Both the position numbers and the translations under genes were made by a program. A stretch of 60,419 nt of DNA, counting the filler. It is 7 parts of 7 records of this genome, joined end to end, with 100 filler letters (N's around TTAATTAATTAA, not from the genome) between each part and the next. Parts side by side here need not be neighbours in the genome. Positions count along the whole stretch, not along the records: positions 11,379 to 24,630 come from SRR31147125_18596; 6 more parts are not named here. One strand, 5' to 3'. How positions within the stretch are numbered: position 1 is the stretch's first letter; every line of letters starts with the position of its first letter. Positions 12,807 to 22,164 of this stretch are shown here, piece by piece. The notes beneath the pieces are model-generated. The model did not search any database. It saw only the letters and a list, made by a program, of their open reading frames with translations, and was not told the DNA's origin.

Positions 12807-15160
12807 ATGAATCAACCCTTAGATGCTGAAATCCTGGTTGCAGACGATATCCCCGCCAACCTCAAGTTGCTGACCAATATCCTGAAAGCACAAGGGTACC
12901 GCGTTCGGCCGGCCCCCAATGGACAACTGACATTACGTTCTGCTGAAAGCAAATCACCTGATTTGATTCTTCTGGACATAAAAATGCCCGATATGGATGG
13001 CTATGAGGTTTGCAGGGTTTTAAAGGCCGACAAAAAAAATGCCGAAGTTCCGGTTATTTTTATCAGTGCCCTTGATGAGTCCCATGATAAGGTTAAAGGC
13101 TTTGAAGCCGGTGGCGTTGATTTCATTACAAAACCGTTCCAAGCTGACGAGGTGCTGGCCCGGGTTGAAACACACCTTTCTTTGCGACGCTTACATCAAC
13201 AATTGGAAAAACGAAATGAACAACTTCAACAGGAGATCTCCGAACGCCATAAGACCGAACAGGAACTGCGGGAACTTAACAACTTCAACCGCAAGATTTT
13301 CCAGACGACCAACTTAGGTGTGTTAGCCTATCACGGACGTACCGGGCAATGCGTCATGGCGAATCAGGCTGCTGCAAAAATCGTCAACGGTTCCGTAGAA
13401 CTGCTGCTTGCTCAAAACTTACAGACTCTCCAGTCGTTTCAAACACAGAACCGGTTGGCTATGGTTAAGCAGGTACTGGATACAGGTATCGAATTTGACG
13501 AGCAAGTACACACGGTGACCAGTTTTGGAAGAGAAGTTTGGCTGGAATGCCACGCCAGCCGTTTCCTGAACCATGGTGAGCCCCATCTTCTTTTACTGCT
13601 TCATGATATAACTGAACAAAAAAGTTTCCAGGAAACCCTGCAGCAGGCCAAAGAGGCAGCTGAGGCGGCCAACAAGGCCAAAGGTGAATTCCTGGCAAAT
13701 ATAAGCCATGAAATCCGTACACCGCTCAATGCAGTTATAGGATTCAGCGAATTGTTGTCATCCACCGTCAGCGACCCAAAACAGAAAAACTATATTCAAT
13801 CCATTCAAACTGCAGGAGAAAGCCTGCTCCAGCTTATAAATGATATTTTAGACCTTTCAAAGATCGAAGCCGGCAAATTTGAGCTAAGCTATACTCCCAC
13901 AAACCTGATCCGCCTAATAGATGAAATAGAACGGATTTTTTCCCAACAAGCGTTGAAAAAAATATCCGAATTATCACTGAAATTGTCTCTGAACTTCCCC
14001 CTTCCCTTCTCCTTGACGAAATCCGGTTGAGGCAGATTCTTACCAATCTGGTTGGAAATGCAGTAAAGTTTACTCAAACGGGTCAGATCAAGCTCTCTAT
14101 CAACAATGCAAACACGATTGAGACTGAGGATAACACCTTTGATATCGATATTTCCGTTGAGGATACCGGTATAGGTATTGCCGAAAATGACACAAACCGT
14201 ATTTTTGAATCCTTTAGGCAGCAATCTGGCCAGGATACGGCAAAATTCGGAGGAACCGGCCTGGGACTAACCATCTGTAAACGACTGGTTGAAATGATGG
14301 GCGGGAGCATATCGGTAGAAAGCACCCAAGGAGAAGGAAGCACCTTTACTGTGAGCATCCGAAATGTGGCAATTTCATCTAAAGAACATGCATCTGCTGA
14401 ACGAATGCCTAGTTATGGGACCATGAAGTTTGAAAAAGCAAGCATACTCGTGGTTGATGATGTTGAGTCAAACCGTAAATTCTTTAGCGAGGTCCTCTCA
14501 AACATGGGCCTTGATGTTTTGACAGCCGTCAACGGTAAGCAGGCCATAACGATCGCGGACAAGCATCTGCCTGATGCGATATTAATGGATCTGTCAATGC
14601 CTGTTATGGATGGAATTGATTCTACCAGACAATTGAAAATGTCCTCAAGAACGAAAAATATCCCCGTGATTGCCGTGAGCGCACGCCTTGTTCCTGAACT
14701 GCCTTCAGCAGTAGTTGAGAACGGATTGAATGGTTATCTTGCAAAACCGGTCAAGGCCGGTCAACTTTTTTCTGAACTATCAAAACACCTGCAAGTCGAT
14801 AAGAGTAAGGATAGAGAACCATCCCCGGCTGAAAGCGGTCTGCCAACTTCTATAGACGACCAATCTCCTGAAAAGATAATAAATCTTTCCGAACTCATCA
14901 ACGTCATTGACTCTGATCTCATGTGCCAATGGGAAGATTTTCAGAAAGTAATGCCCATTAAAACCATCCACAAATTCGGGAAAAAATTAGAAGCCCTGGG
15001 ACAAAAGCACAAGGCGACCCCTCTTGCCCATTACGGCAGAGATCTTTGTCGTTATACAGATAGTTTTGATGTTGAGAATATGAAAGTAATGATTGAAAAT
15101 TTCCCTGATATGGTAAATGAATTCAAATCGTTAGAAAGGACAACCAATGAAATCAAATAA
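12807..15160 (+). CDS. Hybrid kinase REC-PAS-HisKA-HATPase-REC, split by a frameshift at A7 13956-13962
   Basis: Adding one A gives continuous ...[41 protein letters not shown], joining ORFs 12807..14030 and 14027..15160. Confidence 0.9.
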
Positions 15161-15722: not shown

Positions 15723-15804
15723 GCCTTTGAAAGCACCTCTTTTACCTACATCAGGTAACTTCCAGCGAATTTTCCGAATTCCTCCACTTCCTTAGCACTG
15801 ATGC

Positions 15805-15870
15805 TTTTAACGCCCAGCCTCACAGGAGAGCGAACGCAGTGAGCGATTCCTGTGGAGGCGATTGTTAGCC
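15805..15870 (-). mobile_element. Integron attC site of cassette 3
   Basis: Minus strand: R'' GGCTAAC (overlaps stop) ...GCCTCCACAGGA...TCCTGTGAGGC... R' GTTAAAA; 66-bp imperfect palindrome with an extrahelical base. Confidence 0.9.
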
Positions 15871-16704
15871 ATGATTTCCAGCAACAAAGCGTGATGACTC
15901 GTTTATCCTAAATATATCAATAAGATATTCTTTATCATTTTCAATATTACACAATATTAGTACATCTTCTCGCCAGTCTCCAAAAATAGCGAAATGCACC
16001 TTTTCCGGATCAAGCTCACTGAAAGCTGAAGTGAGCTTCTCCAAATTTTGCTTAATGCTTGTTACTATCCATGCCCCCTGAAGCTGGACATCTGGATTAA
16101 CCGATTTGAATTTATTCTCGATACTTCTAAACATAAGTCTGTGATCATGCTCTTCCTTAGGTTCAATATCAGGCCCATTCATATTGTGAATAAGGTCTGC
16201 TTTTCTTCTCTTTACATCAAGCAATATCTTTCTTCCATCTTCTGGTGTTAGCAACCAATCGATTGTTTTATTTCCTTCTCCCTTTCCTTCCACTTCAAAC
16301 TCCATCTCTATCTCATCACTTACTCTATGCCCGGGGTACATTTCCGCTAAGACATCTAAATGCTTTTCTGGAACATTTAGCCTTTCTAAAAAAATATTTA
16401 ATTCTTCAACTTTTAGTCTTTTTGCTGCAACTTCGAGTGAAGATTTCAGTTTCTCCACAGGAACCCAAACATCTGTTCCCCATAAAAGCTCGCCGTCCAA
16501 GTCGTACGGAACTCCAAACTCGTAGCGCCATAGCCCCGTCATTTTATCTAGAAAAGCCCCAGAATCTAGAAGAGGAGAAGAAATCATTGTTATTAGCTTC
16601 TGGTCTTCTACCTCTAAAGACTGAAATAAATCATCATTCGTCAATAGTTCCGTTAAAGAACTCTTTTCTTCGATAACCTGTGGAAATATTGATTCTATAA
16701 ACAT
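15865..16704 (-). CDS. Integron cassette 3: hypothetical protein with PD-(D/E)xK-like motif
   Basis: Cassette bounded by attC sites; LAEM...KTIDWLL...ILLDVKRR fits an E...D...(D/E)xK nuclease pattern. Confidence 0.6.
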   Translation of the reverse strand: MFIESIFPQVIEEKSSLTELLTNDDLFQSLEVEDQKLITMISSPLLDSGAFLDKMTGLWRYEFGVPYDLDGELLWGTDVWVPVEKLKSSLEVAAKRLKVEELNIFLERLNVPEKHLDVLAEMYPGHRVSDEIEMEFEVEGKGEGNKTIDWLLTPEDGRKILLDVKRRKADLIHNMNGPDIEPKEEHDHRLMFRSIENKFKSVNPDVQLQGAWIVTSIKQNLEKLTSAFSELDPEKVHFAIFGDWREDVLILCNIENDKEYLIDIFRINESSRFVAGNHG

Positions 16705-16718
16705 ATCTCGGCCTAAAT

Positions 16719-16846
16719 GGCTAGCGGCGGTGATAACCTAAAAAATGGTGCGTACCAAGGAGTTTGAAATGCTGATAAACGTAATGCGTATGACATAATT
16801 ACCAGTCTCGCCAACCTCTTTTTTCAGGTTCATAAAATTGTTATAC
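16719..16846 (-). mobile_element. Integron attC site of cassette 2 (R' core mutated GTT->GCT)
   Basis: Minus strand: R'' GTATAAC, ATGAACCTGAAAAAA pairing with TTTTTTAGGTTAT, R' GCTAGCC; 128 bp. Confidence 0.75.
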
Positions 16847-17518
16847 ATTGTTTTTCATCATCTCTTCAATTGTTGTTCTATGGTTATAAAGTAGTCTATC
16901 TACTTCCCAACCATTTAAACTTGCTTTCTTGCCAACCTCTAAGTAAAATTTTTCTTCTTCTTCATATTTTTTGAAATTCAAACCTAAAAGTTTACTAATG
17001 GCTTTTATTCTGGCATCGATAGCAATAGAGTTTCTGAAGTCTTCATGATAAACATCCATCATTATATTACGCGAATACTTTGGACCAATACCATGGAATT
17101 GGCGTAGAAATTTGATTTTCTGTTTTCTGCCCTTTAAGGAAAAAAGCTTCTCTTTGGCGGTCTCTGGGCCACCCATATTTTTTATTTGAATGAAGCATTT
17201 TAAAATGTATTCAGCTTTTTTATTTGGCATTCTTACTTTAGCTTCTTTACAGACTAACTTGACTAGCGTTTCCCTATCGTATTCAAAGAGGGAATTTAAA
17301 TAATCATATTTGACTCTATTGTAATTTTCTTTATTACCGATCAAACCGTTCCAACCAGAAGAAAGGCCCATAGTAGAAAAACTTTGCAACAAAAAATGCC
17401 ATAGAAAGTCAGGACGTTTTATCTCCCTATAACCTTCTTTTTGTTCTTCAAGCATGTTTCTATTTTTAATAGATACAATTTCAAGAATCGATGCTAATAA
17501 CTCTTTCTGATCATTCAT
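16841..17518 (-). CDS. Integron cassette 2: helix-hairpin-helix DNA glycosylase/lyase-like protein (OGG-like)
   Basis: HhH motif LRQFHGIGPKYSRNI followed by IAIDARI, then Y...E and EVDRLLY, as in archaeal-type Ogg proteins. Confidence 0.7.
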   Translation of the reverse strand: MNDQKELLASILEIVSIKNRNMLEEQKEGYREIKRPDFLWHFLLQSFSTMGLSSGWNGLIGNKENYNRVKYDYLNSLFEYDRETLVKLVCKEAKVRMPNKKAEYILKCFIQIKNMGGPETAKEKLFSLKGRKQKIKFLRQFHGIGPKYSRNIMMDVYHEDFRNSIAIDARIKAISKLLGLNFKKYEEEEKFYLEVGKKASLNGWEVDRLLYNHRTTIEEMMKNNV

Positions 17519-17530
17519 TTTTTCCTTTTT

Positions 17531-17591
17531 TTATAACGTTGGAGTTCACCGGCGCGCGATCACGCGCGTCAGGTGAAACGACTTGTTATGT
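17531..17591 (-). mobile_element. Integron attC site of cassette 1
   Basis: Minus strand: ACATAAC AAGTC GTTTCACCTGACGCGCGTGATCGCGCGCCGGTGAAC TCCAAC GTTATAA; canonical R''/L''/L'/R' layout, 61 bp. Confidence 0.93.
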
Positions 17592-18095
17592 AATTGTCCT
17601 TAATTTTGCTTCCAGCATCTCGATAGGATATTTCCTCCCTATCGCGCTCAGGATATTCCTGTTTAATTCTTTGTTGATATCGTAAATATTGGTACTTTCT
17701 AATCCTCCATTAATATGTATTCTCCAATCTAGCTGAACCTTTTGATCGTTCATAGAGCCTAATACGCTTCGATTATTTGTTTTTGCGTAGAGGATATTCT
17801 TGAGTTCATTCAATACAGCTTCTATTTGTGGTTGAGCAAAACCTTCTTGTAATAGGTTTTTAAATAGGTGTTGGGTAAAGATGATATGGAAATTAGCAAA
17901 GTCCGTTTTTATTAGACGAGGAATAAACAGACTGTAAAGGGTAGAGTCGTTGGTGATGAGCACACATTTTCTTCTTTCTACTTTTACGAGATTGGCGTGC
18001 CAGCCACCCAGTATGCTATTTATTGGCTCAACATTGCAGGTTAGCTTTGGTTTAAATTCATTTAATAATTTTTGTGTACAACGTATTATCTGCAA
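17586..18095 (-). CDS. Integron cassette 1: DUF6933-like protein
   Basis: IRCTQKLL...LGGWHANL...RRKCVLITNDSTLYS...KTNNRSVLGSMND recalls DUF6933; stop codon lies within R'' of attC. Confidence 0.65.
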   Translation of the reverse strand: MQIIRCTQKLLNEFKPKLTCNVEPINSILGGWHANLVKVERRKCVLITNDSTLYSLFIPRLIKTDFANFHIIFTQHLFKNLLQEGFAQPQIEAVLNELKNILYAKTNNRSVLGSMNDQKVQLDWRIHINGGLESTNIYDINKELNRNILSAIGRKYPIEMLEAKLRTIT

Positions 18096-18114
18096 AGTTG
18101 TATTTCCTTTTATG

Positions 18115-18135
18115 ACATAACTTCTTTATATGTAG
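18115..18135 (-). mobile_element. Putative integron attI core site
   Basis: Minus strand ACATATA-AAGAA-G|TTATGT; the 7-bp core is the exact complement of R'' (ACATAAC) of cassette 1 attC and lies between the first cassette and the divergent intI. Confidence 0.75.
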
Positions 18136-18498
18136 CTGCTGTTAAATAGGGTGTGGTGAGTGTGCTGCTTGCCATTTTTCATACGTCTACTCAGATCTCA
18201 GTTGCCTAGTTTATTCCCTCACTCCTCACAGCGTATCCTTCAGGTATCAGATATGTAAGGATAATTATGTAACGTAACTCGCAGATACAAACGGTGCAAT
18301 ATTAAATTGTTAGGATTGCTACGCTGTGATATCGGGCTCAGACCAGGTTATCGGGCTGTCGTTTTAAATGCATTATCGATATACGATTGCTCGATTGAAA
18401 AGGTGGAACCGTGAAGAATGTCTGCAAATTGTGCTGTAATAGGTGGGCCGGAACATGTTATGTAGAGTCGTTTATATGCGGAAAATAACAGTGATTAT

Positions 18499-19538
18499 AT
18501 GGATAATACACGTGATTACAGTAATTTTGATGGTGCAGAATTTGGTGAGTTTCTGATACGGAAGGCTATTGTCCCATCCAGGCAGGCAAAGTTTTTCGTA
18601 CACTGGGTTCGAAAGTTTTTTGTTATGCGTGGTAAATGGAAGGTCGCCCACTGGTTTGAACAGGTTCCCTTATTTCTCGAAGCCTTGAATCATTCTGGTG
18701 CGGTTGAATCCTGGCAACTCCGACAGGCGGAGCAGGCTGTCCGTGTTTATTTCACCAATTACCTTCATGAAGATCCCGATCAACCTGTGGTGCAAAGCCG
18801 TCAGTTGAGTGATGATGCTTCCTTGTCATTTTCCGATATGGAGCAACGCTTTGTAGTACAGCTGAAAATTCGTAACTACTCCGCATCAACCCTTAAGACA
18901 TATCTGCAGTGGGTGAGACAATATCACCATTATTGTAATAAAGGTGATTCACAAGAGTTTGCACAGGTCTACAACCCCGATACAGTCAAGAATTTCCTCG
19001 CCCATCTCGCAATTCACAAAAACGTTGCTGCATCCACCCAGAACCAGGCATTCAACAGTCTGCTCATGTTTTTCAGGATGACGCTGAATATGGAATTGGG
19101 TGATCTCAAAGAAAACGTTCGAGCACGGTCCGGTAGAAAGTTGCCGGTGGTGTTTTCCGTTGAAGAGGTGCAGCGTCTGTTTGCCTGTGTGAAGGATAAC
19201 ACTGGCCTGGCCCTCAAACTCATTTACGGTGGCGGACTTCGGGTTAATGAATGTTGCCGGATTCGAATTAAGGATGTGGAGTTTGATCAGAGACTGCTCT
19301 TTGTCAGGAGCGGAAAGGGGGACAAGGATCGCTCCACACTGCTGCCCGAAACCCTCGTCTGTCAATTGAAAGGCCATGTTCAAGAGGTCTTTTCGCTTCA
19401 CGATCAGGATCTTGCCAGGGGCTTTGGGACGGTAAGGCTTCCCTCGGCCACTCCAGGGTGGAGACGACGATGATCTATACCCACGTGATCAAGGATATGA
19501 GAAACCCCGTCACCAGCCCACTGGATCTGCTGGACTGA
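18499..19538 (+). pseudogene. intI: Integron integrase, long N-terminal type, with internal deletion and frameshift
   Basis: VAASTQNQAFNSLLM, LPVVFSVEEV, LIYGGGLRVNE, VRSGKGDKDR, HDQDLARGFGTVRLP; jumps at 19443 into another frame reading LGHSRVETTMIYTHVIKDMRNPVTSPLDLLD*; the HxxR region is missing. Confidence 0.92.
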
Positions 19539-19724
19539 CTGGCGTTGGTTTTCATGAGATTCATTATGTATGCCGGACAGCCTGTTTTAGTGTAGCAGAC
19601 GCGCTTTAGATGATGATGGAGTAATGGCATTAATACGTTTTGCTCTGGAACCTCCGGCACAATTATGGTATTTCGGCATGCCAGTGAAGAAACGTATTCA
19701 CCAAAATTTGAGCCAGGTTTTGAT

Positions 19725-20192: not shown

Positions 20193-22164
20193 ATGCTGTC
20201 AGTCAACGGCCTCGACATCCGCTACGGGGAAAAACATCTCTTTAAGAATATCTCGGCAGTCGTTCACCCCGGCGACCGGATCGGCCTGGTCGGTGTCAAC
20301 GGCACCGGCAAGTCGACGCTGATGAAGATCATGGCGTCGGTGACCGTCGCCGACGATGGGGTGTTGAGCCGGTCCAAACACTTCACGGTGGCATACCTGC
20401 CGCAGGAGCCGTCGCTGGTCAGTTCGGGCAGGACCCTCTACGAGGAGGCGGTCCAGTCGTTTTCCCGGCTGCTGGATCTGCAGAGCGAGGCCGGGCGGTT
20501 GAACGAGGTGCTGGCCGACACGGAAATCGCTGACGGTGAAGTCGAAGCGCTGCTCGAACGGCAGGGAGAAATCCAGCAGATCCTCGACAACAGCGACATC
20601 TATACGATCCGCTCCCAGACGGAGAAGGTCCTGTTCGGCCTCGGTTTTTCGGAAGCGGATTTGCAGGCGGAGGTGTCGACCTTTTCCGGTGGCTGGATCA
20701 TGCGGCTGCTGCTCGCCAAGATGCTGCTGGAGTCCCCGTCACTGTTGTTGCTCGATGAACCGACCAACCACCTCGACCTGGAATCGTTGACCTGGCTCGA
20801 ATCCTTTCTACAAAGCTACCACGGGGCGCTGGTCCTCATCTCCCATGACCGGACATTCCTGGACCGGACCACCACCCAGACCTGGGAACTCAGCCTGGGT
20901 CGGCTGAACATCTACAAGGGGAATTATTCCCGGTACGTCGAAGACAAGGAAGAGCGGCGGCGCATCGAGAAGGCGTCGTACGATAACCAGCAGGCTCAGA
21001 TTCGCCAGACCATGCGCTTCGTCGAGCGGTTCCGGGCAAAGTCGACGAAGGCCAAGCAGGTCCAGTCCCGGCTCAAGCAGATCGAACGGCTTGACCTCGT
21101 CGAGTTGTCCGAAGAGGAGCATTCGATCAAGTTCACTTTCCCGGCGGCGCCGCATTCGGGGCGCGACGTGCTGATGGCCGAAGGGATCGGGAAGTCCTTC
21201 GGCGGGCGAACAGTCTTTGCCGGCATGGACCTGCTCCTGCAGCGCGGCGATAAGGTCGCCGTTGTCGGAGTGAACGGCGCCGGCAAGTCGACCATGCTCA
21301 AGATTCTCGCAGACCAGTTGCCGGCCGACAGCGGCTCGTGCCGACTCGGCAGCGGGGTGCTGCTGACCTATTTCGGTCAGCACCAGGCCCGGGAGCTGGC
21401 CCCCGAATTCACCGTGCTGGAGAGCCTGTCCCACGTCGCGGGTGACATGACGATGACCCGCATACGCTCCCTTCTCGGGGCGTTTTTGTTCCGGGGAGGA
21501 CGTCGACAAGAAGGTCTCGGTCCTGTCCGGCGGCGAAAAGAGCCGGCTGGCGCTTGCCCGGATGATCGCGGTGCCGGCGAACTGCATGCTCCTGGATGAG
21601 CCGACCAACCATCTTGACATGCACTCCCAGGAGGTGTTGCAGGAGGCGATGCGGCAGTACGACGGCACCATCGTGGTGGTGTCCCATAACCGTTATTTCG
21701 TGGATCGTTTCGTAAACAAGGTCCTGGAGATCAAGGATGGCGCGGCGACCCTCTACGACGGGACGATCGAGGAATACCTTGATCGACAGGAGCGGCTGGC
21801 GCTCAGGGACGCCGATAAGGCTGCAGCGGCAGCTCCCGCGGAAACCAATGGGTCGGCGAGGGGAGAGAGCAAAAAGGAAAAACGTCGCAAAGAAGCTCAG
21901 AGGCGCCAGAAACGTCAGCAGCTCGCCGGTCCGTGGCTGAAGAAACTTGCCGACGCGGAGGCGAAGGTGGAGGAGCTTGAGCTGCGGAAGGACGAGCTCG
22001 AGGCGGAGTTGGCCGACCCGGAGCTCTATCAGGACCAGAAGGCCTGGTCCGAAGTGAACGGCCGCTACAACGACTGCACGCGCAGGCTAGACCGCTGGAT
22101 GACCCAGTGGGAGGAAGCCCAGGCGAAAATCGATGAAGTCGATGCTGAGCAGGACTTCTCATGA
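20193..22164 (+). CDS. ABC-F family ATPase, split by a frameshift at G4 21493-21496
   Basis: Two ABC cassettes (GVNGTGKS, FSGGW, LDEPTNHLD twice); the restored reading FRGEDVDKKVSVLSGGEKSRLAL joins both ORFs; C-terminal coiled coil. Confidence 0.93.

Follow-up and report, generated by a model that had tools for sequence, protein, structure and literature searches.

The 60,419-nucleotide stretch of DNA analysed here (the window) carries three attC-bounded cassettes that adjoin an integron integrase pseudogene. The second of them, cassette 2, encodes the protein that is the subject of this work, which a sequence-only reading had described as a mobile OGG-like helix-hairpin-helix (HhH) glycosylase and a candidate anti-phage enzyme. 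That reading had placed the ORF at 16841-17518 on the minus strand, and both the ORF and all the motifs quoted from it were found exactly as given. The features of the locus, in window coordinates, are as follows.

15805..15870, minus strand: attC3, end of cassette 3 (the last cassette); heuristic score 11
15865..16704, minus strand: cassette 3 ORF, 279 aa, unannotated family
16731..16848, minus strand: attC2, 3′ end of cassette 2; overlaps the stop codon, GTTAT end near 16737
16841..17518, minus strand: cassette 2 ORF, 225 aa, ATG start; predicted Ogg2-fold HhH-GPD DNA glycosylase/AP-lyase
16883..16912, minus strand: GWEVDRLLYN helix; Asp207 at 16898-16900, Tyr211 at 16886-16888
17006..17026, minus strand: IAIDARI motif, aa 165-171; Asp168 codon at 17015-17017, predicted catalytic Asp
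17078..17092, minus strand: HhH hairpin GIGPK, aa 143-147; Lys147 codon at 17078-17080, predicted Schiff-base nucleophile
17366-17407, minus strand: FLWHFLLQSFSTMG motif, aa 38-51
17531..17591, minus strand: attC1, between cassettes 1 and 2; R″ box, L″/L′ stem, R′ GTTAT; start of cassette 2
17586..18095, minus strand: cassette 1 ORF, 169 aa, DUF6933 (Pfam 2.1e-46) / PADLOC candidate PDC-S63 (6.2e-30)
18096..18498, no strand assigned: attI/promoter region from intI to cassette 1; GTTAT core at 18117-18121 (minus strand), read from the sequence
18499..19538, plus strand: integron integrase (intI) pseudogene with an internal deletion and a frame change

The cassette array

An integron cassette is a single promoterless ORF lying between attC sites, which are recognized by their R″ and R′ boxes and an imperfect hairpin. 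The cassette 2 ORF is bounded by attC hairpins on both sides, attC2 being the weaker. When folded as single-stranded DNA, attC1 reaches -15.3 kcal/mol (z -3.48; heuristic score 12), and attC2 forms a long imperfect hairpin of -13 kcal/mol with a weak z of -1.85 (heuristic score 8). The attC heuristic is crude and strand-symmetric, and it undercounts, because the window's own attC2 scored only 8. The sites also recur in other contigs: at least five other contigs of run X1 match the window only at 17533-17590, within attC1, and have unlike flanks; contigs of run X2, whose coverage leaves out 16800-19540, have only 15807-15868, within attC3, in common with the window; and a run X2 contig with cassette 3 parts from the window sequence at 16723, at a distance of 14 nt from the attC2 core. 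The hairpin folds, the heuristic and the recurrence of attC across contigs thus justify the label of cassette that the gene had been given, and the cassette 2 gene is cassette-borne and mobile.

The adjacent integrase is not functional, as intI is a pseudogene from which an internal part is deleted. The TIGR02249 profile matches it with 199 bits (cut-off 265), and only over profile positions 7-200 of 315; its conserved C-terminal tyrosine box lies in another frame, at 19401-19538. In independent contigs from the run that is its probable source, cassettes 1 and 2 join inside a repeated attC, and therefore the adjacency to this intI could be an assembly choice. The jump in GC content at 19.5 kb coincides with the end of the pseudogene, so an assembly chimera, though possible, is not needed to explain it. 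In the region between intI and cassette 1 (18096..18498) the fold scan found no hairpin, and promoter-like sites were not above chance; since they were fewer than in shuffles, no Pc promoter can be named.

Cassette 1, the neighbour of cassette 2, is a PADLOC defence candidate, and we found no paper on DUF6933 or PDC-S63 in the literature. Cassette 3 had no match in Pfam, NCBIfam, PADLOC or PHROG; it has 189 homologues and an AF2 model with a pLDDT of 87, the C-terminal part of which weakly resembles PD-(D/E)XK nucleases (best VIA Z only 7.2), and Foldseek returned nothing for it at E≤1e-3.

Fold and active centre of the cassette 2 protein

Family models and sequence searches recover little of the cassette 2 protein. 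There was no match in NCBIfam or in the PHROG library, and none in PADLOC (2023) beyond a noise-level one to RT_VI (E 0.008), and the silence of these last two libraries was counted against a role in defence; Pfam Ogg-HhH (PF22175), whose cut-off is 27 bits, scored 14 (E 0.037). Against the PDB, phmmer with the single sequence produced one irrelevant match (E 0.37), and the best match of the family profile, to an Ogg entry, had an E of only 0.21. The AF2 model (pLDDT 94.5) was more informative. A Foldseek comparison with Ogg had been proposed from the sequence, and all seven PDB matches at E≤1e-3 proved to be Ogg2 chains (TMq 0.64-0.72). VIA aligned the model, over residues 1-225, to many HhH-GPD enzymes at Z 12-19: 18.0-19.1 to Ogg2 (rmsd 2.2-2.4 Å, 187-195 residues), 13.6-15.4 to endonuclease III and 12.4-13.4 to MagIII, Mag1 and Mag2. 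The best matches by both methods were the Ogg2 structures 3knt, 3fhf, 3n0u and 3fhg. As modelled, the protein has the two-domain helical fold with a helix-hairpin-helix that marks the HhH-GPD superfamily, and this predicted fold is, with high confidence, that of an Ogg2-type HhH glycosylase. Among viral structures (BFVD) the model had no match at E≤1e-3. That the structures closest to it belong to true repair enzymes for 8-oxoG was counted against a role in defence.

In HhH-GPD enzymes the catalytic Asp lies about 20 residues past the HhH hairpin, and bifunctional members have a Lys in the hairpin. An hhalign comparison of the family with 28 canonical Ogg2 proteins (probability 89.9, E 1.7e-6, aa 73-211) aligned K147 onto the Ogg2 HhH lysine and D168, 21 residues further on, onto the Ogg2 aspartate; the family against a single Ogg2 sequence gave no alignment of worth (probability 0.8). 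The same alignment places D207 and Tyr/Phe211 on the guanine-binding Asp and the stacking Trp of Ogg2. K147, D168, R170 and D207 are each kept in 49/49 aligned sequences, and at position 211, 24 of them have Y and 25 have F. The fold and the alignment to Ogg2 together support the earlier proposal of an HhH glycosylase with Lys at the lyase position and Asp at the catalytic position. The claim that its N-terminal half is unlike housekeeping enzymes stood in sequence, where the hhalign match covers aa 73-211 and leaves aa 1-72 without a counterpart, and fell in structure, where the Ogg2-like fold starts at residue 1-11, depending on the chain, and runs to residue 216 (VIA).

The protein thus shares with the Ogg2 enzymes (MjOgg 3KNT/3FHF, SsOgg 3FHG, TM1821 3N0U; PF22175) the two-domain all-helical HhH-GPD fold over nearly the full length, the HhH lysine, the catalytic Asp, an Asp-x3-aromatic base-binding helix and a similar size. 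It differs from them in sequence (16-19% identity), in three extra residues from Lys to Asp, in Arg170 and Tyr/Phe211 where Ogg2 has His and Trp, and in being cassette-borne and sporadic. Endonuclease III (Nth) has the HhH-GPD fold and the lysine nucleophile in common with it and scores below Ogg2 in structure. According to the review PMC3397491, Asp194 and Trp198 of MjaOGG2 are the base-binding Asp and the stacking Trp of Ogg2. That the aligned sequences of the cassette 2 family keep an Asp for the guanine edge (D207) and an aromatic residue for stacking (Y/F211) would be compatible with a guanine-like substrate.

The clearest departure is at the C terminus. In canonical Ogg2 the tail after the base-binding Asp is exactly 13 residues long in 28/28 proteins and ends in K in 27/28; in the cassette 2 family 14-40 residues follow D207, and the last one is K in 1/49. 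According to the review PMC3397491, the carboxylate of the C-terminal lysine of Ogg2 senses N7-H of 8-oxoG, and truncation of this lysine abolishes 8-oxoG excision. The variable tail of the cassette 2 family stands against a fixed tail with an 8-oxoG-sensing lysine in Ogg2, and the absence of this sensor, with the Pfam score below cut-off, agrees with the earlier view that the protein is not a standard Ogg.

A rare, conserved and patchily distributed family

We collected 426 homologues at E≤1e-3 out of 783 candidates, and an exhaustive profile search returned 607 clusters (50% identity) at the same threshold; 52 columns, those of K147 and D168 among them, are invariant over the 49 aligned sequences. 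The similarity is thus far above chance. High conservation of this kind is unusual for a defence gene, and was counted against a defence role. Confirmed matches number 102 in 185,579 species genomes, from at least 13 phyla; from phylum to phylum, they are 38-62% identical to the cassette 2 protein. A homologue from Vibrio tubiashii (P0045) has 57% identity. Within a single order that was surveyed, 1/401 genomes has the family, and in a phage collection it was found in 0/50,697 records. The family is rare and patchy in its distribution. On the tree, phylum labels require 27 changes (minimum 12), and the six copies from Methanothrix group in a single clade, a pattern suggestive of vertical inheritance that was counted against a defence role. 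Fusions to TPR, ankyrin or HD domains occur in part of the family and, like the defence candidate in cassette 1, were counted in favour of such a role.

Several relatives are annotated in their sources as 'thermostable 8-oxoguanine DNA glycosylase'. A PF22175 scan of five carrier genomes gave no match at the cassette 2-family loci, the sole match (197 bits) being a separate canonical Ogg2 in one of them (G004); Fpg is present in 4/5. In the literature we found no paper that names the family, and none that brings '8-oxoguanine DNA glycosylase' together with integron and 'gene cassette'.

Mobility of the homologues was visible in part of the loci. Attachment-site-like (attC-like) flanks were present in 5/9 homologue loci inspected by eye (L001-L004, L064), a strong attC-like site lay downstream in 4/74 loci (vs 0/74 shuffles), and an integrase lay within 10 kb in 2/80. 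For most homologues outside Pseudomonadota and Desulfonema we saw no attC, nearby integrase or clear defence island; this scarcity of visible integron context was counted against the defence reading. The genes nearby are of mixed kinds, housekeeping ones (such as ThiC, Hsp70 and methylmalonyl-CoA mutase) among them, which was likewise counted against it. The scan of 148/268 neighbour ORFs gave few defence-type matches (4 of AAA_21 and 4 AriA-like, for example), and several loci have toxin-antitoxin (TA) pairs and nuclease-like genes close by. The largest neighbour family occurs in only 6/80 loci, and so no cognate methyltransferase or antitoxin emerges.

Proposed function and its alternatives

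Defence by cassette-encoded glycosylases already has a precedent in the Dag preprint (Getz et al. 2025, bioRxiv 10.1101/2025.10.29.685425). There, protection against a 7-deazaguanine phage is shown for Dag1, Dag2 and 17/22 other glycosylases of HhH fold encoded by cassettes in Vibrionaceae integrons; because of this published precedent, an anti-phage role of the cassette 2 protein is plausible. The preprint also states that Dag1 requires K118, D184 and W188, the Trp lying four residues past the Asp, which is the spacing of D207 and Y211 in the cassette 2 protein. For fold references it draws on the same structures of Ogg2 and AGOG. Compared by their description there, the Dag proteins are, like the cassette 2 protein, HhH-fold, compact, single-domain, integron-cassette-encoded and invisible to family models, and the sporadic, cross-phylum distribution is likewise found in the cassette 2 family. 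The differences are that Lys and pocket Asp are 60 residues apart in the cassette 2 protein and 66 in Dag1, that the family has Tyr/Phe where Dag1 has Trp, and that the Dag families come from Vibrionaceae integrons, whereas the cassette 2 copy lies on a non-Vibrio metagenome contig. Brig1 and Brig2 are reported to follow the same logic of defence, excising a phage-specific modified base to leave abasic sites (Hossain et al. 2024, PMC11078745); as summarized in the Dag preprint, they have the uracil-DNA-glycosylase fold and not HhH, and target modified cytosine or thymidine (10.1101/2025.10.29.685425).

On balance, and with modest confidence, we favour the view that the cassette 2 protein is a stand-alone, bifunctional HhH-GPD glycosylase/AP-lyase on a distinct branch of the Ogg2 lineage, carried as a promoterless integron cassette and serving a Dag-like role in defence. 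Its most likely place, by analogy, is among the recently described glycosylases by which phage DNA with modified guanines is destroyed. The fold, the catalytic residues, the cassette status, the rarity and the mobility are what the analysis shows, and the substrate and the protection against phage are inferred by analogy with the Dag preprint. A guanine-like base would be flipped into the enzyme pocket, where Asp207 would contact its Watson-Crick edge and Tyr/Phe211 would stack on it. Asp168 would activate Lys147 for attack on C1′, and through a Schiff-base intermediate the base would be released and the strand nicked. With the N7-H sensor of Ogg2 (the fixed C-terminal lysine carboxylate) gone, the base edge near position 7 would be read differently, perhaps by the variable tail or by W204, E205 and R208, so that a modified guanine, for example a 7-deazaguanine derivative, could be excised from incoming phage DNA and host DNA without the modified base would be spared. 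If this is true, the Dag principle, by which the protective guanine modification of a phage becomes its weakness, extends well beyond Vibrio integrons, to Planctomycetota, Verrucomicrobiota, Acidobacteriota and archaea. The family would also be a natural experiment in specificity, with the Ogg2 scaffold and guanine-binding helix kept and the 8-oxoG sensor removed. Its strong conservation pinpoints residues for mutation (K147, D168, R170, D207, Y211 and W204), and a bifunctional glycosylase with specificity for modified guanine bases would make a useful mapping reagent.

We hold a bolder version only tentatively, and would sooner expect it to fail than to stand: that the family is an unnamed single-gene immune module, derived from Ogg2, in which the sensor was replaced to read a phage-specific substituent at guanine position 7, and which has spread, in part as integron cassettes, over at least 13 phyla, methanogenic archaea included. 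Were the immune-module reading right, the near-invariant pocket would single out one and the same modified base as a marker of non-self across the prokaryotes, and the base recognized could differ from those tested so far.

The most serious competitor of the Dag-like role, which we nevertheless regard as unlikely, is one in repair, with an accessory glycosylase that removes oxidised purines (8-oxoG, FapyG or related lesions) from host DNA and is spread horizontally as a stress-protection gene. Such an enzyme would explain why Ogg2 8-oxoG glycosylases are the closest structures, why the guanine-edge Asp and stacking aromatic are retained and why several relatives bear the 8-oxoguanine glycosylase annotation; very high conservation suits a chemically fixed lesion, the Methanothrix clade is seemingly vertical and housekeeping genes are common among the neighbours. 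However, the cassette 2 protein lacks the C-terminal lysine that Ogg2 needs for 8-oxoG excision (PMC3397491) and scores under the Pfam cut-off. Also against the repair role stand Fpg, already present in 4/5 carrier genomes, the canonical Ogg2 in one of them, carriage by a single one of 401 genomes in an order, and the cassette-borne state of the gene. If it did hold, the Ogg2 fold would be able to recognize 8-oxoG without the C-terminal lysine.

Another role in DNA conflict, for instance as a 'restriction glycosylase' that depends on sequence or methylation, as a toxin directed at host DNA or as a protein that binds DNA without catalysis, seems improbable: a single gene that moves between differing contexts, with TA pairs and nuclease-like genes near several loci, would suit it, but the gene comes without a conserved partner, and conservation of all the catalytic residues disfavours a non-catalytic protein.

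An HhH lysine is the mark of bifunctional enzymes, and its invariance (49/49) makes it very improbable that the protein is, like MagIII or Mag1, a monofunctional glycosylase for alkylpurines (3-methyladenine type); the HhH fold does also match the Mag proteins, and one neighbouring protein-atlas cluster bears the automatic name 'putative 3-methyladenine DNA glycosylase' (score 0.96), no more than a lead, but Ogg2 stands 5-6 Z units above the Mag proteins and hhalign ties the pocket helix to Ogg2.

The glycosylase gene and its cassette array

Three co-oriented cassettes lie on the minus strand, the glycosylase gene being the second, and an integron integrase gene is divergent from the array.

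Features of the cassette array and the integrase gene
18499-19538, plus strand: integron integrase gene
17586-18095, minus strand: cassette 1, DUF6933 (Pfam 2.1e-46) and PADLOC phage-defence candidate PDC-S63 (6.2e-30)
17531-17591, minus strand: attC1, separating cassettes 1 and 2; a hairpin of textbook form (-15.3 kcal/mol, z -3.48), R''/R' boxes present
16841-17518, minus strand: cassette 2, glycosylase
~16731-16848, minus strand: attC-like site between cassettes 2 and 3; its hairpin is longer and weaker (z -1.85), overlapping the stop codon, with GTTAT at its end
15865-16704, minus strand: cassette 3, unannotated conserved protein of 279 aa
15805-15870, minus strand: attC3, attC-like site closing the array

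The sequence-only reading had placed the glycosylase ORF correctly (16841-17518, minus strand, ATG start, 225 aa), and the motifs it quoted were found there: GIGPK at aa 143-147, IAIDARI at aa 165-171 and FLWHFLLQSFSTMG at aa 38-51. AAGGA stands a short way before the ATG, and the two 225-aa homologues displayed (P0002 and P0004) begin at the same aligned position. In a word-indexed protein search 426 of 783 candidates were homologous at E<=1e-3, with a top identity of 88%, and an exhaustive profile search yielded 607, 465 and 245 clusters at 50% identity (E<=1e-3, 1e-10 and 1e-30, respectively). The alignment of 49 sequences has 52 invariant columns. Its sequence and homologues mark the ORF as a genuine gene under conservation. 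The Pfam Ogg-HhH model scored 14 bits (cut-off 27), NCBIfam models did not match the protein, and searches of PADLOC and PHROGs gave no meaningful match.

No paper naming DUF6933 or PDC-S63 was found in a literature search. The cassette 3 protein has 189 homologues with an invariant D/K-rich core, and its residues ~115-270 show a weak likeness to the PD-(D/E)XK nucleases BsmI, Cdn1, NucC and SfsA (best Z only 7.2). The integrase gene matches its profile at positions 7-200 of 315 only, and the conserved C-terminal tyrosine box is read in another frame, joined to the N-terminal two thirds; it must therefore be a pseudogene that has suffered an internal deletion, and ~100 codons, catalytic residues among them, are missing. 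The cassettes have a GC content of 35-37%, the two-component genes to the left 44-50%, and the tRNA-editing and ABC-F genes to the right ~60%.

Fold and active site compared with Ogg2

The structure predicted from the alignment has high confidence (pLDDT 94.5, pTM 0.88) and consists entirely of helices. A Foldseek search against the PDB returned seven matches at E<=1e-3, all of them chains of Ogg2, the archaeal-type 8-oxoguanine glycosylase family (MjOgg 3KNT/3FHF, TM1821 3N0U, SsOgg 3FHG; TMq 0.64-0.72, identity 16-17%). With VIA-align, these four Ogg2 entries gave Z of 18.0-19.1 (rmsd 2.2-2.4 A over 187-195 residues), endonuclease III entries 13.6-15.4, and OGG1, Mag and MagIII entries ~12-13. 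Since the Ogg2 alignments run from residue 1-11 to residue 216, the Ogg2-like fold extends over the whole protein, and the N-terminal part, which had been thought unfamiliar, shares it. As a curiosity only, the queuine-salvage enzyme DUF2419 (PDB 7uk3), which binds a 7-deazaguanine nucleoside, is also among the fold matches of the glycosylase model m550a6f2d1bdd (Z 12.2).

The Pfam profile PF22175 matched 31 of 151 genomes of the phylum of a Methanothrix carrier genome, G004, and ORFs were extracted from these genomes; the canonical reference set comprised 28 Ogg2 proteins from archaeal genomes. The hhalign comparison of the glycosylase family with this set gave a probability of 89.9 and E 1.7e-6 over aa 73-211.

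Glycosylase residues aligned with canonical Ogg2 by hhalign
K147: HhH lysine
D168: catalytic aspartate; the loop is three residues longer in the glycosylase family
R170: at the place of the His two residues past the Asp in the DRH motif
D207: aspartate in the C-terminal helix
Y/F211: Trp at position +4 from the C-terminal-helix Asp

Every one of the 49 aligned family sequences has K147, D168, R170 and D207; at position 211, 24 have Y and 25 have F. In MjaOGG2, according to a review (PMC3397491), Asp194 and Trp198 provide binding and stacking for the flipped guanine. The review adds that Ogg2 senses the N7-H of 8-oxoG through the carboxylate of a C-terminal lysine that is strictly conserved, and that truncation of this lysine abolishes 8-oxoG excision with AP-lyase activity kept. 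In the canonical set, exactly 13 residues follow the Asp in all 28 proteins, with a terminal K in 27; in the glycosylase family, 14-40 residues follow D207, with a terminal K in 1 of 49. The family is predicted to retain the bifunctional glycosylase/lyase catalytic machinery and the guanine-binding helix. It is not classed as Ogg2 because, on the evidence of these alignments, the defining 8-oxoG sensor is lost.

Distribution, genomic contexts and likely role

A scan of 185,579 species, one genome each, gave 128 pattern matches, of which 102 were confirmed and 80 taken further. These 80 loci (identity 38-62%) belong to Pseudomonadota, Planctomycetota, Verrucomicrobiota, Acidobacteriota, Thermodesulfobacteriota, Bacteroidota, Chloroflexota, Actinomycetota, Nitrospirota and Patescibacteria and, among archaea, to Methanothrix. 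Within the order of the Rheinheimera genome, that genome was the only one of 401 to carry the family. The family was found in none of 50,697 phage records and in 2 of 72,556 plasmids; a viral-contig collection of ~2.9 million entries gave 17 pattern matches and one confirmed case, which is only distantly related (28% identity).

An integrase lies within 10 kb at 2 of the 80 loci, and a strong attC-like site downstream at 4 of 74 (0 of 74 shuffles). Of nine loci inspected by eye, five (L001 Rheinheimera, L002 Thiomicrorhabdus, L003 Chitinimonas, L004 Pseudomonas marincola and L064 Desulfonema) had clear attC flanks and lay among short ORFs arrayed in one orientation; L058 may belong with them, and L006, L016 and L036 do not. 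No neighbour is conserved, the largest neighbour family occurring at 6 of 80 loci (1259 ORFs clustered). The scan of immediate neighbours, which covered 148 of 268 ORFs, found a mixture of families: OLD/AbiEii-type ATPases (AAA_21 in 4, AAA_15 in 3), toxin-antitoxin parts, HNH (2) and a C5 methylase on the one hand, and ThiC, Hsp70, methylmalonyl-CoA mutase and others on the other. Domains found in longer family members are TPR (2 of 10 tested), ankyrin and HD, besides a weak PD-(D/E)XK match; some others (L006 and L016 from Luteimonas; P0076 and P0103) share an N-terminal domain of ~145 aa that is conserved but has no counterpart in Pfam.

A preprint by Getz et al. (10.1101/2025.10.29.685425) describes Dag1 and Dag2, HhH-fold integron proteins of V. 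parahaemolyticus that give protection from phages whose DNA is of the 7-deazaguanine type. In vitro, Dag1 breaks down DNA of this type, consistent with bifunctional activity, and it requires K118, D184 and W188; of 22 further Vibrionaceae HhH-fold cassette families, 17 protect against a fully 7-deazaguanine phage. The fold references named there (MjOgg, SsOgg and AGOG) include the same Ogg2 structures that top our searches, and the Asp-x3-aromatic spacing of D184/W188 is that of Ogg2 and the glycosylase family. A Vibrio tubiashii homologue, P0045, is 57% identical to our protein. The earlier proposal of an anti-phage enzyme acting on modified bases thus matches the published Dag mechanism well, and for the same reason it is no longer new.

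The HhH glycosylase/lyase class and the cassette status are both well supported. By analogy with Dag, an anti-phage role with a modified-guanine substrate is the most likely reading, which we hold at somewhat better than even. Repair of oxidised purines is the main rival, held to be clearly less likely; the strong conservation of the family and its many non-integron, non-defence contexts speak for it. In G004 (loci L074 and L081), the family occurs together with a canonical Ogg2 (197 bits) and a gene resembling Fpg, and Fpg is present in four of five carrier genomes.

Cassette mobility and assembly of the window

In a quick ML tree of 79 rows, two of which were marked as spurious long branches, the glycosylase of the window sits in a Pseudomonadota group (SH-aLRT 93) together with the cassette-borne copies. 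Phylum labels require 27 changes (minimum 12), and six Methanothrix copies form one clade. On the tree the copies at L001 (Rheinheimera nanhaiensis) and L004 are near-identical, with branch lengths of 0.055 and 0.16, and their attC sites are similar, which suggests recent cassette exchange between different families.

The label of cassette is borne out by the attC-like flanking sites and by the recurrence of attC sites and cassette 3 in other contexts. At least five other contigs of run X1, the probable source, match the window over 17533-17590 (attC1) only, with 1-6 mismatches, and are unlike it beyond; the community therefore holds many cassettes with that attC type. In run X2, from another study, a 1835-nt contig carries cassette 3 (15808-16723, 12 mismatches, 98.7% identical) with unlike flanks on both sides, and further contigs share only attC3. 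Independent X1 contigs break within attC1 (15800-17571 and 17552-19540), so that the adjacency of cassette 2 to the intI of the window runs through a repeat.

The GC content of the window is a striking mosaic in which blocks of 32-41% take turns with others of 52-63% (for example at 20-24 kb and 34-45 kb); it could come from horizontal acquisitions or chimeric assembly. An ABC-F ATPase seems split between 20193-21599 and 21562-22164 (plus strand), with its C-terminal domain in the second, overlapping ORF, and a hybrid sensor kinase likewise between overlapping ORFs 12807-14030 and 14027-15160 (plus strand); both may reflect frameshifts or sequencing errors.
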